A stretch of DNA of 64,000 nt from Lingula anatina. Its lineage: Eukaryota; Animalia; Brachiopoda. The stretch lies in contig CM120640.1 in assembly GCA_051362555.1 (NCBI GenBank), positions 6,758,001-6,822,000 of the forward strand, given 5' to 3'. The notes beneath the pieces are model-generated. The model was not told the origin of the DNA, did no database searches, and was given only the letters and a program-made list of their open reading frames with translations. Shown here one piece after another: positions 2,744 to 54,463 of this stretch (position 1 is the first letter of the stretch; each line of letters starts with the position of its first letter). Made by a program: the position numbers and the translations under genes.

Positions 2744-2753
2744 GGAATACTGG

Positions 2754-3650: not shown

Positions 3651-3668
3651 GAAAATATAAGTTTCCTC

Positions 3669-5984: not shown

Positions 5985-6022
<38 letters not shown>

Positions 6023-6552
6023 ACCAACACCAAGTCCAAATTGCAATTTTATTGTCAATACAAGAACAAATATGTGAAGGAAAGATACTTAGATACAATT
6101 AAAGATAGAGATAAATACACCACTTTAACTCGATTCCGCATAAGTGCACACAACCTATAGGTATGGAAACAGGTAGACATGAAAGAATTTCTCAAGCAGA
6201 GAGAATTTGCAAAAAGTGTGATTCTGGGAAAATAGAAGATGAAATCCATTTCCTAGTGTCTTGCCCTCTTTATACAGATCTCCGATATGATCTTTATTCA
6301 CTGTACAAAAGACAATATAGTAACTTTGAGCATCTTACCAGAATGGATAAATTTATAACACTAATGACTGGTTAGAAGAATGAACATATATGGCCACTTA
6401 GGCTCTGCCAAATATGTTTTGCTTTTTTTCTTACAAGTAGTCATACTATATCACTATGTAAAATAATTGCTATTTATTTATAATTGCATTCCTATAGTAC
6501 ATTTTCATCTACCATGATGTAGATGCATACGATGCAATGAATAAAGCAAAGC
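5684..6552 (+). mobile_element. RTEX-like LINE 3' relic fixed in every homogenized unit (also ~13405, ~21768, ~29498, ~40478)
   Basis: KYTTLTRFRISAHNL*..ETGRH..ERICKKC..IEDEIHFLVSCPLY, a C-terminal zinc-finger-type motif; internal (GA)n; AATAAA near the end; absent from the left terminal unit (~1770). Confidence 0.75.
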
Positions 6553-7759
6553 ATATATATGAAAACAAGCCGGCAATACCGAAATCTAGAGCTTAAGGTG
6601 GCCTAATCCCAATCCAGTCAGCTTCATGCTATGTCAGCAAATTGAGCTGGGTACAATGGATCGTCATCAGCAATAAGTGCTAAGGTAACCACTTACAACA
6701 GATAATAAATCGCCCTGGGTAGGGTGAATCTATCTATTAAAAGTAGACTCTTACCTGTCGCAAAACAAACTCAACATAAAAGAGAACATCCTGAGATTTC
6801 AAGCCTCTAAGCTACTACTATTCTTCACAAAACCATTGATTACCTTATAACAGAATTGATTTCGTTTAACAAATCGTTCAATGCAATCATTAAGCAGCAA
6901 TCAAACACGGTCCATTTCAAGGAGAGGAGACAAGATTTCACTTAATTTTCACCAACTAAACAATCATTAATTAATTGATAATGCTGTTATTGTGAAATCT
7001 AATTCTGTCTTAGCAAAGTTAAGTAAACTGACAGAGCCCATGAAATAATCTATAACGAAATTTTGATATCTTATTCAGTACAAACAGAATGGAAGAAAAT
7101 CACGGTAAAATTGTCTTTAAAAAAAAAAAGCTATTATTTCCTTTTTATTGATTTTAAAATTTGTCTTTCTTGTTGTAGATGTTATTCATAATAATATTGT
7201 CAACTGTGCTGAAGTGCATGCTTAAGGCACTTTATTTTTAAGAGAGAATTTTTTAAAAGTATTTTATCTGCCACTAAAACCATAGTAGCTCCAATGTCCT
7301 GTAGCTGCTAACAAATAATCAAATAAAAACTCCAGAATACACAGTGATTTCACCTAATTTAAATGCATTTGTCAACATATTGTATGTGAAAATAAAAAAA
7401 GGAAAGCGTGTGCTAATCAGCAGTGTAATACATAACAATTAAGTAATATTTCCACTTGTTACTGTAGATTACGTATGTTATGTCTTTCAAATTCAATTGT
7501 GTGCCGGGGATCATCAAGGCCTCTACTTTTCAAACAGCTGATAATTTACTTATTGGTTTAGATGTTGAGAAACATGCCCACAATGAGAGCAGAGACAATG
7601 CTATACTGTGTAAATAAAAGATTGTAGAATGCAAAACGAATTCTTCTATGTCAGAGTGTAGGGATTCTTGTGCGTGTGTGAACATGCACATTTCTTGTTT
7701 GTTATCACGTGTATGTCTTATAATAACATTTGGTATAGCTTTCCTGGAAAGATATGGTT

Positions 7760-7775
7760 GGTCCTGAAAAGGACC
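7760..7775 (-). terminator. H2B histone mRNA 3' stem-loop
   Basis: Sense GGTCCTTTTCAGGACC followed by a purine-rich GAAAGCT downstream element; present after every H2B copy. Confidence 0.95.
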
Positions 7776-7802
7776 GTTTGTGTAAATCACCGACTTGCTG
7801 AT

Positions 7803-8171
7803 TTACTTGGAGCTGGTGTACTTGGTGACGGCCTTTGTGCCCTCACTGACAGCGTGCTTAGCAAGCTCACCGGGCAGCAAGAGACGGACAGCAGTCTGAA
7901 CCTCTCGGCTGGTGATGGTGGAACGCTTGTTGTAGTGGGCAAGGCGGGAAGCTTCACCGGCAATACGCTCAAAGATGTCATTGACAAAGCTGTTCATGAT
8001 GCTCATGGCTTTGCTGGAGATACCGGTGTCAGGGTGCACCTGTTTCATCACTTTGTAGATGTAGATGCTGTAGCTTTCCTTTCTCTTCCTCCTTCTCTTC
8101 TTGTCACCACTACGTGCGGCCTTAGCCTTACCGGCTTTCTTGGCGCCCTTGGAGCTCACTTTGGGAGGCAT
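7803..8171 (-). CDS. H2B: Histone H2B
   Basis: 122 aa, [27 protein letters not shown]...KYTSSK. Confidence 0.99.
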
Positions 8172-8230
8172 GGTACTTGTATTCTACCGTACAAATTGAA
8201 CGTTGAATACTGGCAGAAGAGAGCGTTTTG

Positions 8231-8258
8231 TATTTATACAACGCGTTATGCAAATAAG
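8231..8258 (-). promoter_or_regulatory. H2B promoter: TATA box plus octamer-containing H2B box
   Basis: Sense CCTTATTTGCATAA...TATAAATA (octamer 8248-8255, TATA 8231-8238). Confidence 0.85.
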
Positions 8259-8369
8259 GGGATCCAGCGCTACACGTTGTGAAATTCACAATCGGATTGG
8301 GTGAAGTTCCCAGCGCGCAACAAATGCAGCGTCGAAGCCGAGGCAATTGAAAGTAGCATATGTCTTATA

Positions 8370-8465
8370 GGTATAGCTTTCCTGGAAAGATATGGTTGGT
8401 CCTGAAAAGGACCGTTTGTGTAAATCACCGACTTGCTGATTTACTTGGAGCTGGTGTACTTGGTG
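8370..8465 (-). repeat. Duplicated H2B 3' end (last codons, stop, stem-loop, downstream element) upstream of the H2B promoter
   Basis: Identical to 7732-7827; present in all homogenized units. Confidence 0.92.
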
Positions 8466-8640
8466 TGCTTAGATAGAATATTTTATGAGTAATTTTACTA
8501 GTACTTATCTTCATTATATAAAGATGGTAATGCACTAACTGTATTGTATCATCATTTGTATTTCATATTGTACAAGGTCATGACAATCTATGTACCAGTA
8601 CAGAAATAAATTGAATTGAAATAAATTGAAATTAAATTGA
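8466..8640 (+). mobile_element. 3' tail of an RTEX-like LINE fixed in the unit
   Basis: Near-exact reverse complement of 20441-20587; ends in aaataaattg-like tandem tail. Confidence 0.8.
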
Positions 8641-9226
8641 CTTCATGAAAGCACTTAGTCTACAGTCCAAAGTGGTCTCATCATAAACGAAAACAACGTG
8701 CGTATGCTGTTATTTTCAACTTCTTGACAGCAGTTTATTTATCAAAACAAGACGTTATCTTCAATGAGGTGTCAAAGCAATGATCTGATTGCAATCAAGA
8801 AGCTGACAGCAATTAAGGTGTCCTAAGATTTCAATCAAGTCTGACATCAAGGCACTTTTGATACTCAATTAAGCACAATACAATACGAGCCTATATCATA
8901 TACTTCTATGCCTATATGAGGTATTCACCATGGCAGTCAAACCGTGCTCGTTATATCATTAACAATATTAATAAAAATACGTTTCTGGAAGGAGGATGTG
9001 AAGCACTTGTTTTGTATCATGCAAAACCACATGTACCTATAGTTATTTCATGGCCCCTGTGGTACCAAACAATCTATGTAGAGTTATGCAAATTAGAGGC
9101 TCGTATGTTGCACAGTGAGAACGAGGGCAAGTTAAGCGCTCTCTTTACCTATTGGCAGTTATTTCGACTATGCTGTCTTATTGGACAGATTTGCGTGCAG
9201 CACTGAATCCCCATCGATGGCTATAA

Positions 9227-9670
<444 letters not shown>

Positions 9671-9697
9671 ATTGCTGTTTGCAAATTTACAACAAAC

Positions 9698-9713
9698 GGT
9701 CCTTTTCAGGACC
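9698..9713 (+). terminator. H2A histone 3' stem-loop
   Basis: GGTCCTTTTCAGGACC then GAAAAGCT. Confidence 0.95.
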
Positions 9714-11146
9714 AACCACATATTCATAGAAAAGCTACGCCAATGAAGTTCATTACGAATTAATTTTCACATCCCAAATACTCTCTCGTAATGCTAGACG
9801 CGATTAATCCCACTATTCTCTGTATATCGTGAATATGAAACCATAAATAAGAATTGGTCCTTGTCACCCAGAAGAGTGAAAAATCAAGTTTATAATTGAT
9901 ATCTGCAAAATCAACTTTGACTTAATCACTGGTGACAGACAGCTGAACTAATTGTCACAGTGTCATGTACAAGCCAAGCTTTGCTGTATTGTAAACATAC
10001 ACATTCATTTTATATATTTATTTGCACGCGTGAGAGAACAGAGGATTTTATTGTCTTCCCAGGAGTTAAGAAGCACAAAAAAACATATCTATAGGCTCTA
10101 ATTTGTTTATGGGATCTGTCTTTTTTCTTTTTTTTTTTTTTTTCACAATATTGATAAATATTTCTGATGAAAAGAGCATCTTTTGTCTTTTTTCCTTCTT
10201 TTAATAAAGGTACGAAAATTATGTTTTAGGTGTCTTTTATTTAATTCTGTATAGGAAAAGGTAGACAATTTAAATGGCCCGCTTTTCTTTTACCTTTTTC
10301 TAACACTAACACTTACAGTTACCCTTTACTGCAAAAAGAGTGATCATTTTCTTGCAGAAAAGCAGTTTTAGCACTCAATATACATGTTGTATGTAAAATG
10401 ATATGGGCCTGCCCCTAAATGGCTTAATTTGATAACTGTTTTAAACATGTACTGCTACTTTTAGGTAGCTTATTAAACGAAAGAATTTTATGAAATCCTT
10501 TTTCATTATTTCGCAAAGGCAAAAGAAATCCACGACTGTCTCAATTTTAATTTAGTTTTTAATTTTTACTATGTCTAAAGTTACATAATGTAAGGAGCCC
10601 TAAATGGTAACATATATGCTCCAGTAACGTATGTTCCAGGTCATTTAATTTTAATTTTTATATCGGTTTCCCTATATTTTGTAGTGATTCAATCATGGTA
10701 TATTATGCATAATGTAAATATGTTTTTGTAAATATTTAAACTGTAACTCCACCTTTCCACGGAAAAAGCTCATATCCGATAAAATAAATATATAATTGAT
10801 AAAATTACTAGAAATTTGGACAGTTTGTTAGTTTATGTGAAGAATCATATTCCCTGCACTGTATTAAAGTTATTTATTCACAGATTTTGGAATTTCTTTT
10901 CAAATCTAATGAATGTTGAATACAGCAAAATGTATTTCATTAGTTTTTTATTAAACAAATATATAAATGCATGTTATGAAGGAACCAAACTGCCAATGTG
11001 CTGTTTTATATCCAAATACAGGACTGTGTTATTTTGAAATTAGATGATAGTTGATGTGATAAATGCACCTGAAAGAAAAGTTAAGACGATCCTTGATGTT
11101 AACGGTTGGTGGAGATTTTGCCTATAATACGAGTACAACAATATTA

Positions 11147-11186
<40 letters not shown>

Positions 11187-11757
11187 TGTAATGACTTGAT
11201 CTTTTCAACGGGGAAAACTTTGCATTTTTTTTTTTTTTTTCAATTTATTTTTGTGGTGCTTTTGCTGTACAGATAAGATGGCCTGCCATTCAGTTTTGTT
11301 GTCGAAACCCAATAGGAATGTTTCTCCTCTCTTGAAAGAATACATGACTTTAAAAGTACAGCATCTGTAAAATTCAGAATTTCCCCCACTGAAAAGATCG
11401 AGTGATTACAGTAAATGACCTAAAATACTGCAGTACTAAAACTTGAACCAAATTTTAGTATATAATAAGCATGTAAAATGCACTGCTAATGAAAATATGT
11501 AAAACAATTAAAAATCGAGGATCTGCACACTGGCATGCCTTTGCAAACCAGAAAACCGACTTCTTTGCTACTCATTATAGCGCATTTGCTACTCATTATA
11601 GAGATAATTAATTGTGAATAGTAATTCTTTCAAATGCATTATCAACTATTGATTTCCTTTTCATCAACTTTAATTATTTCAGAAGAAATTATACGAAGAC
11701 AATTCAGGGTGGACAACGTACGTCAGCACTAATGGTTTAGCTTTTCTGATTTGTAGT

Positions 11758-11773
11758 GGTCCTGAAAAGGACC
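11758..11773 (-). terminator. H3 histone 3' stem-loop
   Basis: Sense GGTCCTTTTCAGGACC then GAAAAGCT. Confidence 0.95.
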
Positions 11774-11798
11774 GTTTTGTTGAGAGTAAAAGCAGAAT

Positions 11799-12227
<429 letters not shown>

Positions 12228-12617
12228 TCAAATAACTTGAATGATTTGGGGTATATGCTACAGAGATTTGTAATATAGCGGTCTATTTGGTGATTGGATG
12301 ACCCAAATTCCTGTCCTATTTTGAGCGCACCTCATTGGATGTATTTTCATTAAAAAAAAGTCATTGAATATGTATAACTACACGTGTGCGCTTTAAATAT
12401 GCAGCATTGAATCCGAGGCAGAGTGAAGGAATGACATATTTCTGCATGTATCACCAAGTTTAGTGGATTTCTGAAAGAAATAAAAATTGGCAATATAAAT
12501 ATAATTAATTCCCACCAATTAAGATCCAACTTCTGTAACGTTCTTAAAGTGATCTCTCTTTGCTAAGAAAAACATAGTTGCAAGATAGATGAAATGTGTT
12601 TGAACTCTACGATTTGC

Positions 12618-12715
12618 CCAATCATATCACTCTACAAGCACAAGTGGTCGTTTTGGCCAATCAAGTTAAGATTTGGTGTTGAAGATCGTTGGCGTCGGAT
12701 AGGTGAGTATATAAT
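12618..12715 (+). promoter_or_regulatory. H4 promoter (CCAAT boxes, TATATAAT at 12708)
   Basis: Two ccaatc motifs and TATATAAT 67 bp upstream of the ATG. Confidence 0.7.
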
Positions 12716-12738
12716 ACGAGGCAACCTTCGGCGATTAA

Positions 12739-13086
<348 letters not shown>

Positions 13087-13113
13087 GCAAACTTCTCATT
13101 GAGACAAACAAAC

Positions 13114-13129
13114 GGTCCTTTTCAGGACC
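13114..13129 (+). terminator. H4 histone 3' stem-loop
   Basis: GGTCCTTTTCAGGACC then ATGAAAAGCT. Confidence 0.95.
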
Positions 13130-28830: not shown

Positions 28831-29178
<348 letters not shown>

Positions 29179-31619: not shown

Positions 31620-31988
31620 TTACTTGGAGCTGGTGTACTTGGTGACGGCCTTTGTGCCCTCACTGACAGCGTGCTTAGCAAGCTCACCGGGCAGCAAGAG
31701 ACGGACAGCAGTCTGAACCTCTCGGCTGGTGATGGTGGAACGCTTGTTGTAGTGGGCAAGGCGGGAAGCTTCACCGGCAATACGCTCAAAGATGTCATTG
31801 ACAAAGCTGTTCATGATGCTCATGGCTTTGCTGGAGATACCGGTGTCAGGGTGCACCTGTTTCATCACTTTGTAGATGTAGATGCTGTAGCTTTCCTTTC
31901 TCTTCCTCCTTCTCTTCTTGTCACCACTACGTGCGGCCTTAGCCTTACCGGCTTTCTTGGCGCCCTTGGAGCTCACTTTGGGAGGCAT
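31620..31988 (-). CDS. H2B: Histone H2B (separated from its promoter by LINE A1)
   Basis: Intact ORF; insertion begins 45 bp upstream of the ATG. Confidence 0.97.
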
Positions 31989-32182
31989 GGTACTTGTATT
32001 CTACCGTACAAATTGAACGTTGAATACTGGCATATGATGTATAGGTATGTGTCGGCGAAGCCGACACGGGAAAGTTACGAAGTCTCGTGCATTAAAATAC
32101 AAGAGCTTCTTTCAATCCCCAAAACGTGTTTATTGTCTTCTACCTCTATTGTTTGTCTGTACGTGGTTTTGGCCTCGCTTGG

Positions 32183-32218
<36 letters not shown>

Positions 32219-32528
32219 ACCGTCTCTTTCCAGTTTGCGCGCTGGCCGCCCCTTCCAGCTTGTTAATTTTTTCCAGATGTTTGTTAATATAAATATTTTT
32301 ATATGTAATATACATATATTATATACCTTTTTTCCTCCGCCTTTATAGTATTATTGTGTTTTCTCATTCCATTTCCTTGTCTCTGGTCATCGGGAGCCCA
32401 GATGTGTTTATCCTTATTTTGTGGACTGAGGTTGCCCTTTTCAGGGTTGTATTTTTCCTTTCTTCCTCCGGTCATCGGGAGACCGGGGTCGCTACCGTTA
32501 GACCGTTTCATATGCACAATTTGTACCA

Positions 32529-35255
32529 TTATTTATATAAGTCAAGGGTAGTATTTTTGCCTGGTTTGCTTAATATTATGTTTTTTAGCTTAAGTTCTTT
32601 GAATAGATGGCTATTTTCGAACCTGCTAATTGTTTTTGTGCCCAGAAAAAATAGTCTGCTTGATATATATTCAATGTTGGCCAGCTTGTGCAGCGTTACG
32701 ATCGAAGTTTTTGTTGGTAATTTGAGCGCTATTCGTAGCGCTCTATTCTGGATTTTTTGCAGATCTTTGAGCCTTGTCTTGTTGATGCCAGCTAGTATAA
32801 CTGCCCCGTACTCAAGTACGGGCCGAATGAAGGATTTATATAGTTTGAGGAGGCAGGCACTCGATGCCCCCCAGTTTGTTCCTCGGAGTCTTATGAGAAG
32901 GCCAGTTCTTTTCCTAGCTCTTTTCACTGTGTTGTCTACGTGTTTTTTGAAACCTAGTTTTCTGTCGAATGTGATTCCCAGCAGTGTGACTTCCTCACAT
33001 GTTTCTAATCGGTCGCCAAATAATGTGAGGTTAAGCTTGGGTTGTTCATTTGATTTTGAAAAGATGATTAATTGTGTTTTCTTGGTGTTTAGTTTTATCC
33101 GCCATAGAGAGCACCATAATTCGAGATCCTTTATCACGCCCGTCAGTCTGATTTCTATGCTTTTTACATTTTTGCATGATGTCCACATGCCTAAATCGTC
33201 TGCAAATTGAGAGACCTCGGTGTTGTATCTTGGGTTTATTGGTAGGTCGTTCACATATATTAGAAATAGCAACGGGCTGATTACAGACCCCTGAGGCGTG
33301 CCAGCATTGAGACTAACATATTCGGATTCCTCGCCTTTGATTCTGACCTTGATCTTTCTGTCTTTCAAAAAAGATGACAGCAAGCGGACAATCTTAACTG
33401 GCAGGTTACTATTTGCTAGTTTGTACCTTAACCCAGCGTGCCAAACTGAGTCAAAAGCCTTCTCCACGTCCAGCATCATAGCGCCCGTAACCCAGCCTTT
33501 GTTTATTGCCAGTTGTGCACTTTCAGCTAGTCTTAACACATGTTCCATTCCTTCTTTCTTGCTCATGTACGCTCTTTGCCATTTATTGAAAAATTGGTCA
33601 TTTTCTAGTTTTTCTTTTATTCTAGTGGCGATTATTCTCTCGAATAGTTTGCCTAGGCAGCTTAGCAGGCTGATCGGTCTATAATTCGTTGTTACTTTGT
33701 GATCTTTCTCAGGTTTGGGTATCATTATACCAGTCGCTTTTTTCCATATTGTGGGGAAATATCCCAACTGCAGACAGTTGTTATAAATGTCGCATAGTTT
33801 GTTTTTCAGACATACAGGCGCTTTTTTAATTATCCCGTTTGTTATTGTGTCGTCACCTGGTGACGTGTTTTTTGTATTTTTCAGATTTCCGTTAAGTTCA
33901 TCTATTGTGATTTTATCTAGAATTTTGTGATCGTCCCCTTCTTCTAATGTCGGGTTAGATAAGGGATCGAATTTGTGTTTGTCTTTACCGACGTAGTTTT
34001 CCACCACCGCTTTAAAACCGTCGTCGAATATGACCCCCTCGTGGGTGTTATGTATCTTGCCAAGGGTATTTGCAAATGCATTTGCTTTCTCCGCATCGTT
34101 TGTTGTAAGTTGCCCATTTTCTTTGAGTACAGGCTTTTCAGATGTTTCTTTAGCTTTGCCAGTGCTAGTTAGCCTTTTAAACATGTCCCAGAAGGTCTTG
34201 TCCATTTTTCTTTCATTTAGCATAGAGGTAGCGGTTTCCCAAGCTTTTTGTTTTTCTTTTTTGATGGCTTCTTTGACCCGTTTTGTCATATAGTTGTACA
34301 TGATTTTATAGAAAGGGCCTTCTTTCTTTTGAGCCAGGCGTCTTAGTTTTCTTTTCAGTTTTATAAGCTTAAGGGTGTCCTCGCTTACTCTCCATACATT
34401 TTCTCGTACCTTTGTTTTTGGGCATGCGGTTTCAAGTGCATTTACTAGTGTCTCGGTCACATTCTCACAAGCTTCGTCTATTCCAGTGGTGGTAGGTGTG
34501 ACTGCGTCGCCATTTAGATTTTCAGAAATTAGATGGTCAAACAGTGGTTGGTTTATTTTTCTTGTATTCCGCCGTAAGACAGTTGGTGCTCTTGCTATTC
34601 GGTTATTCTGAATGATTTTTACGTGTAGGGGTAGATGGTCGCTACCGACGTCTTCACCTACATAACAGTCCGCTATTTTCGAGTAAAGTTGAGTCGTGAC
34701 AAAAGCCATGTCCAGCGTATCAGTATTGCCATTAGTGGCCATGTGCGTAGTTTCGCCATTATCATTAAGATTTATCAGATCTAGTTCCTCAGTTATGTCA
34801 AAGAGAACGTTTCCGTTATTGTTCGTTTTCTTGCAACCAAAGAAAGCGTGCTTACTGTTAAAATCGCCTATAAATAGACAATTTTGATATTGATCAGTAA
34901 AGTGCTTAAATACTGCTTTGTCAGGGGTTGTATGAGGTGGGTTATACAGTGAAACTATAGCCGTTTTTATTTGATTTATCGTAGTTTCTATCCCCAGTAT
35001 TTCAGCATTAAGGTTGCTGGTATTGATAGCTTGGAACTTTACATCTTTCTTAACGAGTATAGCCACTCCGCCTCCATGCGCATCTCTGTCCCTGCGCAAC
35101 ACCTGATAGCCGCTCACAGATATTTTTGTCTTCTCACTCAACTTTGTCTCGTTTATGCATACGATGTCAGGTTTATGCTCTACCAGATATTCAACTAAGA
35201 GTTGTTTCTTGGTTTTAAGACTGTTTATGTTGATATGCATCAGGTGTGCCGCCAT
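32529..35255 (-). CDS. LINE ORF2: AP-like endonuclease plus reverse transcriptase (908 aa, intact)
   Basis: APE motifs INETK, GDFN, SDH; RT motifs YRPISLL, LDVEKAFDSVWH, GTPQGSVISP, FADD; no obvious RNase H. Confidence 0.96.
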   Translation of the reverse strand: MAAHLMHININSLKTKKQLLVEYLVEHKPDIVCINETKLSEKTKISVSGYQVLRRDRDAHGGGVAILVKKDVKFQAINTSNLNAEILGIETTINQIKTAIVSLYNPPHTTPDKAVFKHFTDQYQNCLFIGDFNSKHAFFGCKKTNNNGNVLFDITEELDLINLNDNGETTHMATNGNTDTLDMAFVTTQLYSKIADCYVGEDVGSDHLPLHVKIIQNNRIARAPTVLRRNTRKINQPLFDHLISENLNGDAVTPTTTGIDEACENVTETLVNALETACPKTKVRENVWRVSEDTLKLIKLKRKLRRLAQKKEGPFYKIMYNYMTKRVKEAIKKEKQKAWETATSMLNERKMDKTFWDMFKRLTSTGKAKETSEKPVLKENGQLTTNDAEKANAFANTLGKIHNTHEGVIFDDGFKAVVENYVGKDKHKFDPLSNPTLEEGDDHKILDKITIDELNGNLKNTKNTSPGDDTITNGIIKKAPVCLKNKLCDIYNNCLQLGYFPTIWKKATGIMIPKPEKDHKVTTNYRPISLLSCLGKLFERIIATRIKEKLENDQFFNKWQRAYMSKKEGMEHVLRLAESAQLAINKGWVTGAMMLDVEKAFDSVWHAGLRYKLANSNLPVKIVRLLSSFLKDRKIKVRIKGEESEYVSLNAGTPQGSVISPLLFLIYVNDLPINPRYNTEVSQFADDLGMWTSCKNVKSIEIRLTGVIKDLELWCSLWRIKLNTKKTQLIIFSKSNEQPKLNLTLFGDRLETCEEVTLLGITFDRKLGFKKHVDNTVKRARKRTGLLIRLRGTNWGASSACLLKLYKSFIRPVLEYGAVILAGINKTRLKDLQKIQNRALRIALKLPTKTSIVTLHKLANIEYISSRLFFLGTKTISRFENSHLFKELKLKNIILSKPGKNTTLDLYK

Positions 35256-35299
35256 CTTTGGGTAGGGGTTTGATGCGTGTTAGTGTGTTTGAGTCTGTT

Positions 35300-35725
35300 T
35301 TACTTAAAGGCAACGTGGTGGATAGTTTCACCATCTATGCTGACCTTGTAAGTAGTTGCTACAGCCTCTGCTATGTCTTTACATATGTCGCTTTCGTTTG
35401 CCTGTATTTTTAGTCTTTTTGAAGTCACTTTGATCAGTAATTTGGCTAGGCATATGGCCAGTTTGATAGATTCAGCAACATTCCCTTTCTTGGCATTGTC
35501 TATTGATATGCGTTTTTGTTCGGTGTTCATTTCTTTTTTATACACCTTGCATCCTTTGAAAGATGCCGGGTGTTCTTCTTTACAATTGGCACATTTGCGG
35601 GTGCTTTCTTTGCACTCCTTATGACTGTGCGCCCCGCCACAGTTTTTGCAAGTCTCGGCTGACTTGCAGTGTTCGGCTACGTGCCCGAACTGTTGACACT
35701 TGTAGCACTGTTGTACTGGTGCTGT
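35300..35725 (-). CDS. LINE ORF1 (gag-like) C-terminal part, three zinc knuckles, 5'-truncated
   Basis: QQCYKCQQFGHVAEHC..CKNCGGAHSHKEC..CANCKEEHPASFKGC, read by hand. Confidence 0.88.
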   Translation of the reverse strand, partial: TAPVQQCYKCQQFGHVAEHCKSAETCKNCGGAHSHKECKESTRKCANCKEEHPASFKGCKVYKKEMNTEQKRISIDNAKKGNVAESIKLAICLAKLLIKVTSKRLKIQANESDICKDIAEAVATTYKVSIDGETIHHVAFK

Positions 35726-36366
35726 GTTGAATACTGGCAGAAGAGAGCGTTTTGTATTTATACAACGCGTTATGCAAATAAGGGGATCCAGCGCTACACG
35801 TTGTGAAATTCACAATCGGATTGGGTGAAGTTCCCAGCGCGCAACAAATGCAGCGTCGAAGCCGAGGCAATTGAAAGTAGCATATGTCTTATAGGTATAG
35901 CTTTCCTGGAAAGATATGGTTGGTCCTGAAAAGGACCGTTTGTGTAAATCACCGACTTGCTGATTTACTTGGAGCTGGTGTACTTGGTGTGCTTAGATAG
36001 AATATTTTATGAGTAATTTTACTAGTACTTATCTTCATTATATAAAGATGGTAATGCACTAACTGTATTGTATCATCATTTGTATTTCATATTGTACAAG
36101 GTCATGACAATCTATGTACCAGTGCAGAAATAAATTGAATTGAAATAAATTGAAATTAAATTGACTTCATGAAAGCACTTAGTCTACAGTCCAAAGTGGT
36201 CTCATCATAAACGAAAACAACGTGCGTATGCTGTTATTTTCAACTTCTTGACAGCAGTTTATTTATCAAAACAAGACGTTATCTTCAATGAGGTGTCAAA
36301 GCAATGATCTGATTGCAATCAAGAAGCTGACAGCAATTAAGGTGTCCTAAGATTTCAATCAAGTCT

Positions 36367-39300
36367 AAGTCAGTGCTTCAAGTGCCAAAAATTTGGCCAC
36401 CTTGCTAAACAGTGCGAATCGCCTGAAGCCTGCAAAAACTGTGGTGGTGAGCACAACTATAAAGATTGCGTATCTGACAGCAAAAAATGTGTCAACTGTC
36501 AAGGAGCCCACCACTCATCATATAAAGGCTGCAAAGTCTTCCAAAAGGAAGCAATCGTTGAGCAAAAGAAACAATCAATAGAAGCAATAAAAAGTGCAAA
36601 CCCAAAAAGTATCAATGATGCCATCAAACTAGCCATCTGTCTGGCTAAAGCCCTCATAAAAATCACATCTAAAAGGCTGAAAATCCAAATCAATGAAAGC
36701 GACATATGCAAAGACATTGCTGAAGCAGTCACTACAACTTATAAAGAAAGAATTGACGGCGAAATCATTCATAATGTAGCATTCAGATAAGAAGCTACAA
36801 CCCACCTGTAAGAGTCTACTACGTAACAAAAATGACTCACATAATACATATTAATATAAATGGCCTCAGAGCACACAAACAGCTCCTCGTAGAATATCTA
36901 TCAGAACACAAACCAGACGTGGTTCTCTTAAATGAGACCAAACTTAGTGAGAAATCAAAAATATCCTTCAAAGGGTATGATATGACCAGAAAAGATAGAA
37001 ACTCACGAGGAGGAGGCGTGGCCATTTTAGTAAAAAAAGGCCTACCTTGCCAAGACATAAACACAGACAATCTGACAGCCGAAGTGCTGAGTATTGAGAT
37101 CAGTATACAGAAATGTAAAACTGCTATTGTCGCAATATACAACCCTCCAAATACTAATCCGAGCAAAGAAGTATTCAGTTTCTTCACAAAACAATATACC
37201 CACTGTCTGTTCATGGGAGATCTTAACAGCAAGCACAGATACTTCGGGTGCAAAAAATTTAATGAGAATGGGCACATATTGTTTGACATAAGTGAAGATC
37301 TTGAGCTAACAATTCTCAATGACATGAACGAAACAACGCACATGTCCCCACTTGGTAGCACTGACATACTTGACATGGCTTTCGCAACGCAGTCCACTTT
37401 ATCCAAGATCTCTGAATGCTACGTCGGCGAAGACGTAGGAAGTGATCATCTTCCTTTGCATGTGAAACTAACAAGCAACATAAACGTCGCTACAGAGACA
37501 GAGATACTGAAAAGATGCATCAGAAAACTTAACACGGTCGCCTTCGATAATGCAATAAATTGCAACCTGAATGTCGCACCAATATCCACAAACATACACA
37601 ACATAGATCAGGCGTGCGACAACGTTACAGACACATTAAGCAAAGCTCTAGACTTAGCATGTCCAAAAACACGGGTGCGTGAAAATGTTTGGAGGGTTAG
37701 CAACGAAACCCTCAAGCTAATCAAGCTAAAAAGAAAACTCAGAAGACTTAGCCAAAAGAAAGAGGGTAGTTTCTACAAAGTTATGTACAATTACATGACT
37801 AAGCGAGTAAAATCAGCCATCATCCAGGAAAAACAAGCATCCTGGGAAAACGCAACATCCAGTTTAAACAGCCAAAAAATGGACAAAAACTTTTGGCAAA
37901 CATTCAAATCACTCACAGGCACAGGAAGAACAAAAAGCGGTCGAGAAAAACAGGTGCTAAAAGAAGACGGCAGTCTGACCACTAACAATGATGAAAAGGC
38001 CAAAGCCTTCGCCACAACCCTTGGAAAAATCCACAACACACACGAAGGAAACATCTTCGATGATAATTTCAAAAAATGTGTGGAGAACTATGTGAATAAA
38101 AACAGCACACTGTTCAACCCCCTTCCCCATCCTACCATCGAAAGTAGAGACAAGCACGAGTCAGTGTCACCAATCTCCGTTGAAGAAATAGAGACGAACC
38201 TAAAGCAAACTAAGAACACCGCTCCAGGGGAAGATGAAATAACAAACGCCATCATCAAGATGACACCGCACACTCTGAAAATGAGACTGTGCAATATCTT
38301 TAACGCCTGCTTGACGATTGGATATTTTCCAACGAAATGGAAGCAAGCTACAGGCATCATGCTTCCAAAGCCAGGAAAAAACCTCAAAATAACCACTAAC
38401 TACAGGCCAATCAGTCTTCTAAGCTGTCTTGGAAAACTACTTGAAAGAATATTAGCCACCAGACTTAAAAATACGCTTAAAGCTTCCAATGCCTTTAACA
38501 AATGGCAAAGAGCGTACCTTGAGAAAAAAGAAGGAATAGAACATGTCCTTAGACTGGTAGAGACAGCAAAACTAGCAATACAGAAAAAGTGGGCCACAGG
38601 AACCATCCTGCTGGACGTAGAAAAAGCTTTCGACAGTGTGTGGCACGATGGACTGAGATACAAATTGGCTCATCACAATCTCCCTTGCAAATTAACAAGA
38701 ATACTATCGTCCTTCCTAAATGAAAGAAAGATAAAAGTGAAGGTAGAAACAAGTATCTCAGATCCTGTCCGACTAAACGCAGGAACACCACAGGGATCAG
38801 TACTCAGCCCCCTCCTATTCATACTGTATGTCAATGACCTCCCCATCCACCCAACCAACAAAGTAGAGGCATCACAGTTTGCAGACGACCTTGGACTATG
38901 GACTAGTGCCAAGAGCTCGAAAGCCCTCGAGATAAGACTGAACTCTGCATTAAGAGACTTAGAGCTGTGGTGCTCTCTATGGCGCATCAAGCTGAACGCA
39001 CAGAAAACTCAACTAGTGGTGTTTCACAACAGAAAAATTGAAATACAACCTGAAATCCACCTTTTTGGGGAGAAGGTCAAGCAAGTAAAAGAAGCCACTC
39101 TACTAGGCATAACCCTCGACCAGAAACTGACTCTGAAAAAACACGTGGAAAACCTGACAACTAGAGCAAGACAAAGAACCAACCTCTTAGCAAGACTGAG
39201 AGGCACCAACTGGGAACATCAAGCTCCACCCTGCTCAGAGTGTACAATACTTTCATACGCCCAATACTCGAATACGGAGCTGTTATTCTCGCAACCACCA

Positions 39301-39802
39301 GCAAGTCAAGACTAAAGGAAATGCAAAAAGTACAGAACAAAGCACTCCGAATAGCTTTGAAAATGCCCCAGCACACCAAAATTGAGTATCTACATGAAAA
39401 AGCGAGAATGGAAATGATATCAACCCGACTTCACCATCTGGGTAAAGAAACACTAAAACGACTCGCCAACAGCTGCCTAATGGAAGAGCTGCTAACACAA
39501 AGACAACTGTTGCAAAAAAGTGCCAGCAAAACACTACTAGGACATTACCAACAGCCCTAAATTACATATAAGGGTCTTCACAAAAACCCTCGAATATAGG
39601 CACCAAAAATGCCTACATATGGAGAAGAAGTAAAACAAAACAGCTATCTTACAATCCTTATTCATTTATTTATTTATCTATTTATTTATTTATTTCCTCA
39701 CCAGCGTCCCAAAGGCAAGTAAGAGGGTTGAAAGAAGCCGTGGTCACAAGACCTCTGACTTCGTAACTTCCCTGTCGGCTACGCCGACGAACTTATATTC
39801 AA
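36367..39802 (+). mobile_element. Non-LTR retrotransposon B1; 3' end joined to the presumed H4 start site, 5' end joined to the H2B-H2A spacer
   Basis: ORF1 knuckles to 36790; ORF2 from 36832; 3' junction ...tatattcaa|ggcgattaagc (H4 5' region); H2A, H3 and the H4 promoter are missing upstream. Confidence 0.95.
36832..39560 (+). pseudogene. LINE ORF2 APE-RT with one frameshift near 39215
   Basis: 827-aa ORF continues in another frame (39240-39560, FIRPILEYGAV...QNKALR), homologous to the A1 C-terminus. Confidence 0.9.
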
Positions 39803-42979: not shown

Positions 42980-43023
42980 GGTACTTGTATTCTACCGTAC
43001 AAATTGAACGTTGAATACTGGCA

Positions 43024-43177
43024 AAATCGCCGAATAATGGTTGGTCGGCGAAGCCGAGCAGGGAAGTTACGAGGTCCAAAGTCTTGCGACAGTGGCCTCT
43101 TTCAACCCTCATGCTTTGCTTTAGGGACGTAGCAGGAGAAAATAAATAAATAAATAACTTAATAAGTTTAAAAAATA

Positions 43178-43212
<35 letters not shown>

Positions 43213-43374
43213 AATGATAATAATACAGAAAAATAAAAATGAAATAGGAAAATAAATAAGTAAAATAAAATAGAATTAAAAAAAAAAAAAAAGAGGAAGT
43301 TGAAATAAAAAAAATAAAATAAAATAAATAAATAAATACAAAAAAAAAAAATAAAAATAAAAATAAAAAAAAAA
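43024..43374 (-). mobile_element. Heavily 5'-truncated LINE of lineage C (3' UTR only) at the same H2B site as A1
   Basis: TSD gaatactggca (43013-43023 and 43375-43385); 3' motif homologous to B1; truncated within an expanded T-rich tract. Confidence 0.9.
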
Positions 43375-47422: not shown

Positions 47423-50400
47423 ATGATGTATAGGTTTGTGTCGGCGAAGCCGACACGGGAAAGTTACGAAGTCTCGTGCATTAAAATACAAGAGCTTCTT
47501 TCAATCCCCAAAACGTGTTTATTGTCTTCTGCCTCTATTGTTTGTCTGTACGTGGTTTTGGTCTCGCTTGGATTTTTTTATTTATTTTTTTTTTGACCGT
47601 CTCTTTAAAGTTTGCGCGCTGGCCGCCCCTTCCAGCTTGTTAATTTTTTCCAGATGTTTGTTATTACAATATAAATATTTTTATATATAATATACATATA
47701 TTATATAATATACATATATTATATACCTATTTTCCTCCGCCTTTATAGTATTATCGTGTTTTCTCATTCCATTTCCTTGTCTCTGGTCATCGGGAGCCTA
47801 GATGTGTTTATCCTTATTTTGTGGACTGAGGTTGCCCTTTTCAGGGTTGTATTTTTCCTTTCTTCCTCCGGTCATCGGGAGACCGGGGTCGCTACCGTTA
47901 GACCGTTTCATATGCACAATTTGTACCATTATTTATATAAGTCAAGGGTAGTATTTTTGCCTGGTTTGCTTAATATTATGTTTTTTAGCTTAAGTTCTTT
48001 GAATAGATGGCTATTTTCGAACCTGCTAATTGTTTTTGTGCCCAGAAAAAATAGTCTGCTTGATATATATTCAATGTTGGCCAGCTTGTGCAGCGTTACG
48101 ATCGAAGTTTTTGTTGGTAATTTGAGCGCTATTCGTAGCGCTCTATTCTGGATTTTTTGCAGATCTTTGAGCCTTGTCTTGTTGATGCCAGCTAGTATAA
48201 CTGCCCCGTACTCAAGTACGGGCCGAATGAAGGATTTATATAGTTTGAGGAGGCAGGCACTCGATGCCCCCCAGTTTGTTCCTCTGAGTCTTATGAGAAG
48301 GCCAGTTCTTTTCCTGGCTCTTTTCACTGTGTTGTCTACGTGTTTTTTGAAACCTAGTTTTCTGTCGAATGTGATTCCCAGCAGTGTGACTTCCTCACAT
48401 GTTTCTAATCGGTCGCCAAATAATGTGAGGTTAAGCTTGGGTTGTTCATTTGATTTTGAAAAGATGATTAATTGTGTTTTCTTGGTGTTTAGTTTTATCC
48501 GCCATAGAGAGCACCATAATTCGAGATCCTTCATCACACCCGTCACTCTAGTTTCTATGCTTTTGACGTTTTTACATGATGTCCACATGCCTAAATCGTC
48601 TGCAAATTGAGAGACCTCGGTGTTGTATCTTGGGTTTATTGGTAGGTCGTTCACATATATTAGGAATAGCAACGGGCTGATTACAGACCCCTGAGGCGTG
48701 CCAGCATTGAGACTTACATATAAGGATATCTCGCCTTTGATTCTGACCTTGATCTTTCTGTCTTTCAAAAAAGATGACAGCAAGCGGACAATCTTAACTG
48801 GCAGGTTACTATTTGCTAGTTTGTACCTTAACCCAGCGTGCCAAACTGAGTCGAAAGCCTTCTCCACGTCCAGCATCATAGTGCCCTTAACCCAGCCTTT
48901 GTTCATTGCCAGTTGTGCACTTTCAGCTAATCTGAGCACATGCTCCATTCCTTCTTTTTTGCTCATGTACGCTCTTTGCCATTTATTGAAAAATTGGTCA
49001 TTTTCTAGATTTTCTTTTATTCTAGTGGTGATTATTCTCTCGAATAGTTTGCCTAGGCAGCTTAGCAGGCTGATCGGTCTGTAATTCGTTGTTACTTTGT
49101 GATCTTTCTCAGGTTTGGGTATCAGTATACCAGTTGCTTTTTTCCATATTGTGGGGAAATATCCCAACTGCAGACAGTTGTTATAAATGTCGCATAGTTT
49201 GTTTTTCAGACATTCAGGCGCTTTTTTAATTATCCCGTTTGTTATTGTGTCGTCACCTGGTAACATGTTTTTTGTATTTTTCAGATTTCCGTTTAGTTCA
49301 TCTATTGTGATTTTATCTAGAATTTTGTGATTGTCCCCTTCTACCAGTGTGGGGCTGGATAAGGGATTAAAATTGTTTTTGTTTTTTTCGACGTATTTTT
49401 CCACCACCGCTTTGAAACCGTCGTCGAATATGACCCCCTCGTGGGTGTTATGTATCTTGCCAAGGGTATTTGCAAATGCATTTGCTTTCTCCGCATCGTT
49501 TGTTGTAAGTTGCCCATTTTCTTTGAGTACAGGCTTTTCAGATGTTTCTTTAGCTTTGCCAGTGCTAGTTAGCCTCTTAAACATGTCCCAGAAGGTTTTG
49601 TCCATTTTTCTTTCATTTAGCATAGAGGTAGCGGTTTCCCAAGCTTTTTGTTTTTCTTTTTTGATGGCTTCTTTGACCCGTTTTGTCATATAGTTGTACA
49701 TGATTTTATAGAAAGGGCCTTCTTTCTTTTGAGCCAGGCGTCTTAGTTTTCTTTTCAGTTTTATAAGCTTAAGGGTGTCCTCGCTTACTCTCCATACATT
49801 TTCTCGTACCTTTGTCTTTGGGCATGCGGTTTCAAGTGCATTTACTAGTGTCTCGGTCACATTCTCACAAGCTTCGTCTATTCCAGTGGTGGTAGGTGTG
49901 ACTGCGTCACCTTTTAGATTTTCAGAAATTAGATGGTCAAACAGTGGTTGGTTTATTTTTCTTGTATTCCGCCGTAAGACAGTTGGTGCTCTTGCTATTC
50001 GGTTATTCTGAATGATTTTAACGTGTAGGGGTAGATGGTCGCTACCGACGTCTTCACCTACATAACAGTCCGCTATTTTCGAGTAAAGTTGAGTCGTGAC
50101 AAAAGCCATGTCCAGCGTATCAGTATTGCCATTAGTGGCCATGTGCGTAGTTTCGCCATTATCATTAAGATTTATCAGATCTAGTTCCTCAGTTATGTCA
50201 AAGAGAACGTTTCCGTTATTGTTCGTTTTCTTGCAACCAAAGAAAGCGTACTTACTGTTAAAATCGCCTATAAATAGACAATTTTGATATTGATCAGTAA
50301 AGTGCTTAAATACTGCTTTGTCTGGGGTTGTATGCGGTGGGTTATACAGTGAAACTATAGCCGTTTTTATTTGATTTATCGTAGTTTCTATCCCCAGTAT

Positions 50401-50634
50401 TTCAGCATTAAGGTTGCTGGTATTGATAGCTTGGAACTTTACATCTTTCTTAACGAGTATAGCCACTCAGCCTCCATGCGCATCTCTGTCCCTGCGCAAC
50501 ACCTGATAGCCGCTCACAGATATTTTTGTCTTCTCACTCAACTTTGTCTCGTTTATGCATACGATGTCAGGTTTATGCTCTACCAGATATTCAACTAAGA
50601 GTTGTTTCTTGGTTTTAAGACTGTTTATGTTGAT
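47423..50634 (-). mobile_element. Non-LTR retrotransposon A2 at the presumed H3 start site, truncated at the beginning of ORF2
   Basis: TSD atgatttggggtatatg (47406-47422 and 50635-50651); highly similar to A1. Confidence 0.96.
47929..50634 (-). pseudogene. LINE ORF2 APE-RT lacking its start codon, with GGA>TGA nonsense at 50467-50469
   Basis: 845-aa open remainder (47929-50466); compared with A1. Confidence 0.9.
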
Positions 50635-51131: not shown

Positions 51132-54033
51132 GGTGTCATCTTGATGATGGCGTTTGTTATTTCATCTTCCCCTGGAGCGGTGTTCTTAGTTTGCTTTAGG
51201 TTCGTCTCTATTTCTTCAACGGAGATTGGTGACACTGACTCGTGCTCGTCTCCACTTTCGATGGTAGGATGGGGAAGGGGGTTGAACAGTGTGCTGTTTT
51301 TATTCACATAGTTCTCCACACATTTTTTGAAATTATCATCGAAGATGTTTCCTTCGTGTGTGTTGTGGATTTTTCCAAGGGTTGTGGCGAAGGCTTTGGC
51401 CTTTTCATCATTGTTAGTGGTCAGACTGCCGTCTTCTTTTAGCACCTGTTTTTCTCGACCGCTTTTTTTTGTTTTTCCTGTGCCTGTGAGTGATTTGAAT
51501 GTTTGCCAAAAGTTTTTGTCCATTTTTTGGCTGATTAAACTGGATGTTGCGTTTTCCCAGGATGCTTGTTTTTCTTGGATGATGGCTGATTTTACTCGCT
51601 TAGTCATGTAATTGTACATAACTTTGTAGAAACTACCCTCTTTCTTTTGGCTAAGTCTTCTGAGTTTTCTTTCTAGCTTGATTAGCTTGAGGGTTTCGTT
51701 GCTAACCCTCCAAACATTTTCACGCACCCGTGTTTTTGGACATGCTAAGTCTAGAGCTTTGCTTAATGTGTCTGTAACGTTGTCGCACGCCTGATCTATG
51801 TTGTGTATGTTTGTGGATATTGATGCGACATTCAGGTTGTAATTTATTGCATTATCGAAGGCGACCGTGTTAAGTTTTCTGATGCATCTTTTCAGTATCT
51901 CTGTCTCTTTAGCGATGTTTATGTTGCTTGTTAGTTTCACATGCAAAGGAAGATGATCACTTCCTACGTCTTCGCCGACGTAGCATTCAGAGATTTTGGA
52001 TAAAGTGGGCTGCGTTGCGAAAGCCATGTCAAGTATGTCAGTGCTACCAAGTGGGGACATGTGCGTTCATGTCATTGAGAATTGTTAGCTCAAGATCTTC
52101 ACTTATGTCAAACAATATGTGCCCATTCTCGTTAAATTTTTTGCACCCGAAGTATCTGTGCTTGCTGTTAAGATCTCCCATGAACAGACTGGGTATATTG
52201 TGTTGTGAAGAAACTGAATACTTCTTTGCTTGGATTAGTATTTGGAGGGTTGTATATTGCGACAATAGCAGTTTTACATTTCTGTATACTGATCTCAATA
52301 CTCAGCACTTCGGCTGTCAGATTGTCTGTTTTTATGTCTTGGCAAGGTAGGCCTTTTTTTACTAAAATGGCCACGCCTCCTCCTCGTGAGTTTCTATCTT
52401 TTCTGGTCATATCATACCCTTTGAAGGATATTTTGATTTCTCACTAAGTTTGGTCTCATTTAAGAGAACCACTTCTGGTTTGTGTTCTGATAAGTATTCT
52501 ACGAGGAGCTGTTTGTGTGCTCTGAGGCCATTTATATTGATATGAATTATGTGAGTCATCATTGTTTTCTTAGAAGTTCGCTTTCTTTGTTGTTATTATT
52601 TCTTACTTGAAAGCCACGCTATGAATAATTTCGCCGTCAATTTTTTCTTTATAAGTTGTAGTGACTGCTTCAGCAATGTCTTTGCATATGTCGCTTTCAT
52701 TGATTTGAATTTTCAGTCTTTTAGATGTGATTTTCATGAGGGCTTTAGCCAGACAGATGGCTAGTTTGATGGCATCATTGACACTTTTTGGGTTTGCACT
52801 TTTTATTGCTTCTATTGATTGTTTCTTTTGCTCAACGATTGCTTCCTTTTGGAAGACTTTGCAGCCTTTATATGATGAGTGGTGGGCTCCTTGACAGTTG
52901 ACACATTTTTTGCTGTCAGATACGCAATCTTTATAGTTGTGCTCACCACCACAGTTTTTGCAGGCTTTAGGTGATTCGCACTGTTTAGCAAGGTGGCCAA
53001 ATTTTTGGCACTTGAAGCACTGAGTAAGATCTGATTTTGCTGGTGTGTAATCTAGAGCAAAGTATTTTTGGTGTGCTAGAGTTATGCCATTTTTTAGAAA
53101 CTGTTGTTTCTGCTGTTGGTCATTGCATTTAACCTTGACTTTGTGTATAGCTTTATTAGTTTGGTTGCTGTGCATGCGAAAAGCTGCAAGCTTTAGTTCA
53201 TCTGAAATTTCTTTGTCAGTGACCTTTGGTGATATATTTTTAATCACAATGAACAGGTTTTCTTTGTTTTCTCGGTTTTTATTTTCTGATGTTTTTCTTA
53301 TTGTTGTCCCTTTCAGGGCCCCTGAATTAACGTTTAGCTGAAGAATTTTCTCAGCTGATTTTTCGTCTTGGGCAAAGATGAGGGTGTGACCTCTTTTTGT
53401 CTTGACTGTTTTGAATATCTTAACATCATTGCCTACTACTCTACGTAGGGCTAGAGGGTTGTCAGCAATGCTGCTGGGGAGGTTTTCTAGTAGTATTGGT
53501 CTTGGTTTTGGGGATTTGAAGTACTTCTCCTTTTTAGGAGGGACTTTCCATTACTTGTGGGGTCCTGAAAACCGCTCCAGGGGAAGATGAAATAACAAAC
53601 GCCATCATCAAGATGACACCGCACACTCTGAAAATGAGACTGTGCAATATCTTTAACGCCTGCTTGACGATTGGATATTTTCCAACAAAATGGAAGCAAG
53701 CTACAGGCATCATGCTTCCGAAGCCAGGAAATAACCTCAAAATAACCACTAACTACAGGCCAATCAGTCTTCTAAGTTGTCTCGGGAAAACTACTTGAAA
53801 GAATCTTAGCCACCAGACTGAAAAATACGCTAAAAGCTTCCAATGCCTTTAACAAATAGCAAAGAGCGTACCTTGAGAAAAAAGAAGGAATAGAACGTCC
53901 TTAGACTGGTAGAGACAGCAAAACTAGCAATACAGAAAAAGTGGGCCACAGGAACCATCCTGCTGGACGTAGAAAAAGCTTTCGACAGTGTGTGGCACGA
54001 TGGACTGAGATACAAATTGGCTCATCACAATCT
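51132..54033. mobile_element. Non-LTR retrotransposon B2 with 5' inversion at the presumed H4 start site; 3' part deleted
   Basis: Follows ggcgattaagc (51121-51131); inverted segment 51132-53570 (ORF1 plus 5' ORF2, minus strand); sense segment 53571-54033. Confidence 0.93.
52603..53550 (-). CDS. LINE ORF1 (gag-like, three zinc knuckles), near full length, start not seen
   Basis: Open frame WKVPPKKEKY...CFKCQKFGHLAKQC..CKNCGGEHNYKDC..CVNCQGAHHSSYKGC...VAFK. Confidence 0.8.
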   Translation of the reverse strand, partial: WKVPPKKEKYFKSPKPRPILLENLPSSIADNPLALRRVVGNDVKIFKTVKTKRGHTLIFAQDEKSAEKILQLNVNSGALKGTTIRKTSENKNRENKENLFIVIKNISPKVTDKEISDELKLAAFRMHSNQTNKAIHKVKVKCNDQQQKQQFLKNGITLAHQKYFALDYTPAKSDLTQCFKCQKFGHLAKQCESPKACKNCGGEHNYKDCVSDSKKCVNCQGAHHSSYKGCKVFQKEAIVEQKKQSIEAIKSANPKSVNDAIKLAICLAKALMKITSKRLKIQINESDICKDIAEAVTTTYKEKIDGEIIHSVAFK

Positions 54034-54463
54034 ACCTAAAGTAGCTTATTTGACTACAGTCCAAAGTGGTCTCATCATAAACGAAAACAACGTGCGTATG
54101 CTGTTATTTTCAACTTCTTGACAGCAGTTTATTTATCAAAACAAGACGTTATCTTCAATGAGGTGTCAAAGCAATGATCTGATTGCAATCAAGAAGCTGA
54201 CAGCAATTAAGGTGTCCTAAGATTTCAATCGTCTGACATCAAGGCACTTTTGATACTCAATTAAGCACAATACAATACGAGCCTATATCATACTTCTATG
54301 CCTATATGAGGTATTCACCATGGCAGTCAAACCGTGCTCGTTATATCATTAACAATATTAATAAAAAATACGTTACTGGAAGGAGGATGTGAAGCACTTG
54401 TTTTGTGTCATGCCAAACCACATGTACCTATAGTTATTTCATGGCCCCTGTGGTACCAAACAA

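Follow-up and report, generated by a model that had tools for sequence, protein, structure and literature searches.

Sense-oriented LINE insertions at the inferred start sites of multiple histone genes in the arrays of two animals

A histone array with LINE copies at its promoters

The window (i.e., the whole 64-kb stretch of DNA analyzed here) contains a tandem array of H2B, H2A, H3, and H4 genes, which has a unit of ~7.72 kb and spans positions 5404 to about 56800 (Table 1). An Rfam scan of the window detected five histone 3' stem-loops and nothing else. The H2B protein is identical to a crinoid H2B at 112 of 122 positions, and these two alone among the 30 compared carry REVQ, a resemblance that would agree with an echinoderm host without establishing one. 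At its edge, the array ends in a degenerate histone unit (54054-56762) with a partly deleted H2A gene, and the recent LINE copies all lie within the half of the array on this side. Every unit also carries, ~200 bp 5' of where H2B starts, an exact 96-bp duplicate of the region at the H2B 3' end (8370-8465; equivalents, e.g., at 35894-35989), which abuts a small fixed insert. One H4 TATA box holds an unrelated 633-bp antisense element (20437-21069; TSD, about TATATAAT; A-rich tail), the final 150 bp of which correspond to the fixed insert found at 8466-8615 of every full unit; this element was excluded from all LINE counts.

Five recent copies of one APE-RT LINE clade (A1, C, A2, B1, and B2) were identified between 32 and 54 kb, and all of them have at least one junction at the cap region of an H2B, H3, or H4 gene. 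The insertions affect two of the five H2B promoters, one of the four H3 promoters, two of the five H4 promoters, and none of the four H2A promoters.

Table 1. Coordinates of the array features and LINE copies in the window
Feature	Position	Strand	Remarks
Empty reference unit (H2B/H2A/H3/H4)	5404..13125		7722 bp
H2B-promoter octamer ATTTGCAT	35772..35779	-	sequence
H2B-promoter TATA box TATAAATA	35755..35762	-	23 nt 5' of the 3'-junction cut
LINE copy A1	32033..35725	-	5'-truncated within ORF1; conserved hairpin and (CAT)n tail at 3' end
A1 upstream TSD TGCCAGTATTCAAC	35726..35739	-	14 bp; covers the inferred H2B cap; final C common to element
A1 downstream TSD copy	32019..32032	-	sequence
A1 ORF1 remnant	35301..35725	-	C-terminus and three CCHC knuckles retained, with no start codon ahead of the knuckles
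A1 ORF2, intact	32529..35255	-	908 aa; APE endonuclease and RT
H2B gene displaced by A1	31620..31988	-	cap motif and 5' UTR retained; TATA box and octamer lost
Copy C	43024..43374	-	3' UTR alone; H2B cut identical to that of A1
Copy C TSD	43013-43023 / 43375-43385		11 bp
Copy A2, at H3 cap	47423..50634	-	starts at ORF2 codon 7
A2 TSD	47406-47422 / 50635-50651		17 bp, including 4-5 nt common with the CAT tail
Copy B1	36367..39802	+	3' end at H4 cap region; ORF2 frameshift near its end
Copy B2	51132..54037		5' junction at H4 cap (-1); 3' part lost
Old remnants D and E (A/B clade)	2307..3701	-	joined across a 9-nt H2B-TSD match, ~2745-2753 (approximate)

The 5' end of A1 is located five codons ahead of the first ORF1 zinc knuckle. 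As described in the initial annotation, A1 is preceded on the minus strand by the motif that we take to be the H2B octamer, the TATA box, and the TSD, in this order (35779-35772, 35762-35755, and 35739-35726). The TATTCA motif of the TSD, which had been placed about 30 bp past the TATA box, begins at 35733, 29 nt past the first T of the box, and the motifs put the candidate H2B +1 position at 35732 or 35728. In agreement with that annotation, the 908-aa ORF2 of A1 (an APE-RT frame) is uninterrupted, and the A2 TSD ends (at AAATCAT) within the TCATTCA motif of the empty H3 site. Eight ATGs precede the ORF2 ATG of A1. The in-frame ORF1 ATG at 35530 lies past all three knuckles and opens a 76-aa mini-ORF, which stops at the normal ORF1 stop, 46 nt 5' of the ORF2 ATG. 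The H2B gene displaced by A1 shows no coding differences from the other units; its silencing, which had been proposed, is plausible. The H3 gene displaced by A2 (46964-47374) has two coding differences, one of them an alanine-to-threonine change in the tail, and its 5' UTR is also changed; early decay of this gene is possible.

The other copies differ in structure. Copy C terminates in GGCGATT, identical to the initial 7 nt of the H4 target, and is followed by the H2B target. This terminus suggests that C descends from a parent at an H4 cap, the transcript of which had run on into the target; alternatively, it may be a native 3' end that happens to match the H4 target. In A2, the ORF2 start codon is missing, and a premature TGA interrupts the frame near its start. 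A1 and A2 have targets unlike in sequence (TGCCAGTATT and CATATACCCCAAAT) and differ at 73 of 3195 aligned positions. Their 28 synonymous and 26 nonsynonymous codon changes suggest that they derive from separate parents under selection and that neither was copied from the other. The 5' end of B1 is fused to the H2B-H2A spacer, with the H2A and H3 genes of that unit lost (about 3.9 kb), and the junction (36357-36366) runs through a short match to spacer DNA. B2 is composed of an inverted 5' part (51132-53566) and a direct part (53567-54037), a twin-priming-like structure; since the 5' part is inverted, the H4 promoter would transcribe B2 antisense. The D/E tandem is compatible with targeting by either position or sequence, depending on the order of insertion. 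The ORF2 proteins of the A and B subfamilies are 63% identical, and the two have a 3' UTR module in common. The 3' UTR consensus fold has two-sided changes at 4 of 15 pairs over five sequences, which is no more than suggestive.

Junction positions in the window and in a second animal

All four intact 3' ends in the window (A1, C, A2, and B1) join the histone gene in sense 44 to 48 nt before its ATG (A1 and C, 44 nt at H2B; B1, 45 nt at H4; A2, 48 nt at H3, or 44 nt if CATA is counted as tail). Counted from the putative cap A, four of the five 5' junctions (A1, C, A2, and B2, but not B1) fall between -1 and +3. Every clade copy found in the 64-kb window is positioned at a histone cap or is a remnant of such a copy. 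In both animals, the cap A was assigned from motifs. It belongs to a canonical YCATTY at H3 of the window and at H4, H2A, and H3 of the second animal, while those of the window H2B and H4 were picked with the junction already known. For H2B, the start of TATTCA, 4 to 5 nt upstream of the chosen cap A, is an equally fair candidate; the window H2A cap marks no CA and was left out of the junction counts.

An alignment scan for ORF2 relatives identified 89 loci (80 metagenome and 9 genome loci). A histone gene follows the element in two of the 89 (L084, 36% identity; L020, 33%), most of the contigs being short. In L020 (2400-2519), a relative from a neighboring branch ends just 5' of an H2A start codon, in sense, where the contig also ends. 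Contigs of one genome record (G001), which were located via the LINE protein and not via histones, carry an animal histone array (~90 kb; contigs C2, C3, and C5) that was binned in a bacterial genome record, i.e., assembly contamination. Locus L084 belongs to these contigs, the 4.6-kb histone array of which harbors eight members of a single related family. The H3/H4 coding DNA is 83 to 86% identical to that of the window, and the ORF2 proteins of this family are 34 to 36% identical to those of the window copies.

Seven of the eight G001 copies have a cap junction, and these are distributed across H4, H2A, and H3. The four intact 3' ends (three at H4 and one at H2A) are all located 11 to 12 nt before the A of YCATTY. 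Where the 5' end is complete (four copies), the element begins at -1, +1, +2, and +1 of the putative cap A, and the truncated copies have 5' junctions at -3, -3, and +12, the junction of the eighth copy being ~320 bp off the cap. This last 5' end (L102:9700-9720) is joined to the spacer via a short match, as in B1. The H2B cap site of G001 is occupied by a more distant family: a full-length LINE (L103:15427-20000 and L104:1-1701; 28% ORF2 identity to A1) with an 8-bp TSD (GCATTTTA) and an offset unlike the others, possibly a case of independent convergence on this target. Mis-binned contigs may be enriched in high-copy arrays, so that G001 gives no proof of histone exclusivity; the positions within the array are free of this bias.

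The full-length copy at H4 on contig C5 (about 23829-29557) has an open 602-aa ORF1 and an open 934-aa ORF2. Full-length 5' ends in G001 start with CAC or CAT, host overlap allowed, and the copy at H3 has its own CAC following the host CA; such bases would agree with transcription that begins at the host start as well as with an element-borne initiator. The full-length 5' UTR (L104:10360-10557 and L100:10130-10328, minus strand) contains a terminal hairpin and, just 5' of the ORF1 ATG, a stretch that resembles an intron (GTAT..., TACTAAC in one of the copies, a pyrimidine tract, and AG), and may be spliced or trans-spliced. Two internally deleted copies (L103:8508-10975 and L105:4161-6371) keep the 5' end and ORF1 sequence and have lost ORF2. 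One of these has a normal 3' end at the H2A cap, which suggests a nonautonomous derivative.

Taken over both animals, all eight intact 3' ends fit a first cut 11 to 12 nt before the A of the CA, with one of the eight ambiguous over 10 to 15 nt and the start sites themselves inferred. The corresponding cut lies 20 to 24 nt past the start of a TATA-like box at five different promoters. Eleven of 14 5' junctions are found at -3 to +3 (four of the five recent window copies, old remnant E, and six of the eight G001 copies), those of B2 and E having been read by eye. Off-cap cases are the B1 5' end, the G001 copy at the end of C3, the +12 junction, and the G001 H3 copy without a 3' end. The chance that an intact 3' junction falls in sense 40 to 65 nt before any of the four histone ATGs of a 7.7-kb unit is 0.0067 per event. 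For the window sites, of which three are distinct, the joint chance is 3e-7, and it falls to 4e-11 once the two distinct second-animal sites are added, the 40- to 65-nt interval having been chosen post hoc with the data already seen. The pattern of insertion at cap regions exceeds chance. The targets are unlike each other save for a loose C^NGC at three of the five (window H2B and H4, and G001 H4), and CNGC occurs 146 times in the histone unit; the distance to the inferred start is fixed across genes of unlike sequence. Near base-pair targeting to several inferred histone starts in two distant animals is the robust finding.

Element class, known systems, and RNA

The window elements are APE-type non-LTR retrotransposons (LINEs). 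The ORF2 proteins of A1 and B1 match PF03372, PF14529, and PF00078 above the Pfam cut-off, that of A1 has no Pfam match to an RNase H family, and the closest solved chains are those of LINE-1 ORF2p. The copies show the hallmarks of target-primed reverse transcription (i.e., TSDs of 11, 14, and 13 to 17 bp, 5' truncations, the inverted B2, and (CAT)n tails). The ORF1 translation contains three CCHC knuckles, although zf-CCHC is below the Pfam cut-off and PRE_C2HC is weak (E, 0.05) and limited to the G001 ORF1. The gag-like ORF1 with three CCHC motifs and the ORF2 of ~900 aa lacking RNase H are both features of the jockey clade, which the architecture resembles. In a midpoint-rooted FastTree tree of RT sequences (128 sequences, leaving out near-duplicate proteins and RT matches of <230 aa), the window and G001 families form one clade (support, 0.98), which adjoins a group with named insect proteins; the tree contained no named clade references. 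Members of the Tx1 clade have an L1-like long ORF2 with a C-terminal zinc knuckle. Membership in this clade was rejected, as ORF2 ends ~145 aa past the RT domain with no CCHC motif, and membership in the R2 or other RLE-type group was rejected given the APE domain at the ORF2 N-terminus.

Close relatives belong to clusters of 322 to 2444 members and, among the members listed, are found on large contigs; the clade is therefore probably not confined to histone arrays. Neither a metagenome scan with P0001 nor a scan of viral contigs returned a match, and Rfam had no match in 20 related loci. A TSD search of 11 metagenome loci found no convincing TSD, and the Inr-like 3' flanks there are anecdotal. 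The open literature, with subscription papers, Repbase, and supplementary target tables outside our scope, yielded no LINE that targets histone starts. Earlier surveys may list a family of the Tx1 clade in histone H2B genes. We know of no tethering factor for the LINEs described here.

According to the available text of the sources, target-specific APE-type LINEs belong to the Tx1 clade (e.g., Keno in U2 snRNA genes, and Tx1-Mar) and the R1 clade (PMC4640811, PMC4494074, PMC8869645), and the reported targets of site-specific LINEs are rRNA, tRNA, snRNA, and spliced-leader genes, as well as microsatellites, telomeric repeats, and other transposons, each being one sequence (PMC4640811, PMC8869645). 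The window LINEs share with Tx1 and R1 elements the APE endonuclease and insertion into multicopy host repeats, in which the loss of a gene is buffered, and reliance on flanking transcription, proposed for those elements in the text available to us, is similar to the idea developed below. Unlike them, one family here occupies several unlike protein-coding histone genes at a fixed offset from the start, with an ORF2 of ~910 aa. The rule for target specificity in the available part of PMC4494074 is that >20% of flanks lie in one repeat type; our counts come from histone arrays alone.

R2 elements in 28S rDNA are described in part as needing host transcription of the tandem array and 3' read-through into the target (PMC13580325, PMC4494074), and a host-transcribed tandem array and 3' read-through are likewise points of resemblance here. 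R2 differs in its restriction-like endonuclease, its single ORF, its location inside a Pol I transcript, and its long recognition sequence, as far as these sources describe it. Position-specific integration relative to the start, via host transcription factors, is reported in the accessible text of PMC5371812 for Ty3 (tethered by TFIIIB/TFIIIC), Tj1, the tRNA-gene-targeted elements of Dictyostelium, and Tf1. In that account, Ty3, Tj1, and the Dictyostelium elements use Pol III genes and Tf1 lands broadly at Pol II promoters, whereas the window LINEs occupy the inferred starts of Pol II-transcribed histone genes in one orientation and almost to the base pair. By analogy, their behavior would combine position-specific integration of the Ty3 type with the reliance on host transcription of the R2 type. 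Members of the jockey clade (Hebe of Adineta vaga and TART/HeT-A) have, in the part of PMC2861651 available to us, a three-CCHC ORF1 and an ~900-aa ORF2 with APE and RT, as do the elements studied here. Hebe is reported there to have an internal promoter with its own CATT initiator, a poly(A) end, and a subtelomeric location, unlike the window and G001 elements with their (CAT)n or short unique tails, frequent 5' truncation, and histone-cap sites.

Four RNA runs (each ~6 to 25 in 100 of the run) were mapped to positions 32340-35890 only. Run X1, a stranded poly(A) library from an animal that may lack A1, gave 455 mapped reads from 12.4 million records, and the other three runs gave 0 (X4), 13, and 10. 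The X1 reads cover the whole length of the A family and are nearly all in the sense orientation. Six of them run past 35726 into sequence whose translation is upstream ORF1. All reads differ from the A1 base at 35172 (22/22) and 35269 (12/12), while 9 of 24 carry the A1 allele at 35507, and 28 of the 37 variants listed within the A2 span match A2. Depth was zero over 35791-35890, no pile was found at 35733 or in the TSD among the start piles listed, and the last covered bin holds 483 read-letters, with room for a few chimeric reads. The reads that enter upstream ORF1 and the non-A1 alleles indicate that the family RNA in X1 comes mainly from longer copies elsewhere, and they say nothing about silence of A1.

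Targeting mechanism, alternatives, and implications

Our main reading, to which we assign a probability of roughly 0.6, is that one LINE lineage inserts in sense at several inferred histone starts, likely aiming by the position of the active promoter and not by a single DNA sequence, that its full-length copies would be transcribed by histone promoters, and that truncated copies of the A1 type are likely by-products. The endonuclease would nick the template strand ~11 nt ahead of the cap A, and target-primed reverse transcription would proceed from this -11 nick, followed by second-strand joining at about -3 to +3. The histone 5' UTR would then be replaced at +1 by a complete copy, which would be transcribed from the histone promoter ahead of it, with the multicopy array buffering the lost histone gene. 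A1 would use the same promoter, and its ORF2 protein could perhaps be made by reinitiation after the 76-aa mini-ORF; because no complete ORF1 protein could come from A1, this copy is unlikely to give rise to others on its own. The Pol II open complex is melted from about -9 to +2. The cut positions bracket this region, which would suggest that the element is tethered to the preinitiation complex or cuts at its edge. A bolder version, which we consider rather unlikely as a whole, is that a promoter-less jockey-like LINE reads the Pol II preinitiation complex (nicking the template strand at about -11, on the upstream border of the opened promoter, and joining the other strand at the start), so that each full-length copy comes to lie at +1 of a histone promoter. 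In this version, the LINE would cycle among H2A, H2B, H3, and H4, with a few host cap bases carried at its ends, and the habit would have been kept across distant animals.

The histone arrays may be merely the richest multicopy target of an element that aims at Pol II start sites in general. This proposal is compatible with the main reading, in which it changes histone specificity alone, and we hold it tentatively, at somewhat short of even odds. It would account for the high-copy relatives on large contigs, for a truncated relative in a third organism (L009:80-135) that begins ~22 to 32 nt past a TATAAGG box with a reversed CCAAT box upstream, for the four different 3' flanks of one soil/freshwater family, and for L081, which has no histone match in its 6.7-kb contig; the confinement of all clade copies in the window to histone caps, remnants included, speaks against it. 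It is improbable, in our estimate, that a loose sequence preference of the endonuclease and open chromatin at histone promoters would suffice, with an internal promoter and an incidental TATA position. The C^NGC at three targets and the Inr-like TCA(C/T)T within the first 8 nt of the full-length copies (i.e., a possible internal promoter) fit this explanation, as do the internal promoters of the jockey clade (available text of PMC2861651) and the enrichment of I-element and P-element insertions at active promoters (PMC10018349, in part). However, open chromatin fails to explain the use of a single strand and a cut within ~1 nt of a constant offset at five promoters, the H3 and G001 H2A targets fit C^NGC poorly, and the four full-length 5' ends reach upstream past their own Inr-like motif by a few bases that vary.

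The initial annotation proposed that truncated copies gain a strong cell-cycle-regulated promoter and that A1 could be a source element. Its structural part stands, as a complete histone core promoter is left directly upstream of the element, in sense; a role of truncated copies, and of A1 in particular, as source elements is not supported and seems to us very improbable. The promoter, TSD, and ORF2 of A1 are all intact, reinitiation 46 nt past the mini-ORF stop is conceivable, and the A1 alleles in some X1 reads, with the few chimeric reads that coverage allows, would agree with A1 expression. An intact ORF2 is nevertheless expected in any recent insertion. Two-ORF LINEs need ORF1 in cis, and A1 lacks the front of ORF1, the first useful ATG (35530) coming after the knuckles, which the product would lose. 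Moreover, A2 is no near-identical daughter of A1, and the X1 RNA has the characteristics of longer copies with other alleles, with no listed start pile at 35733. Promoter capture by full-length copies, as in the main reading, is plausible, since all four full-5'-end copies of G001 begin at the cap; that the window contains no full-length copy counts against it. An assembly artifact, or a single insertion spread by duplication of the array, is scarcely credible. Near-identical tandem units are indeed hard to assemble and the B1/B2 region is rearranged, but the subfamilies (with 63% ORF2 identity), genes, TSD lengths, and truncation points all differ, and the geometry is repeated in the unrelated G001 assembly.

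Published site-specific LINEs, as far as the sources consulted describe them, aim by sequence at RNA genes, simple repeats, and other transposons. Landing in one orientation within 1 to 2 bases at four histone-gene starts would point to the Pol II transcription machinery as the guide. The intact G001 copy on contig C5 makes the targeting rule directly testable, and an inserter directed to start sites would be a potential tool. If the main reading is true, expression of the retrotransposon would be tied to S phase and early cleavage, and histone arrays would constitute a transposon niche, like rDNA.
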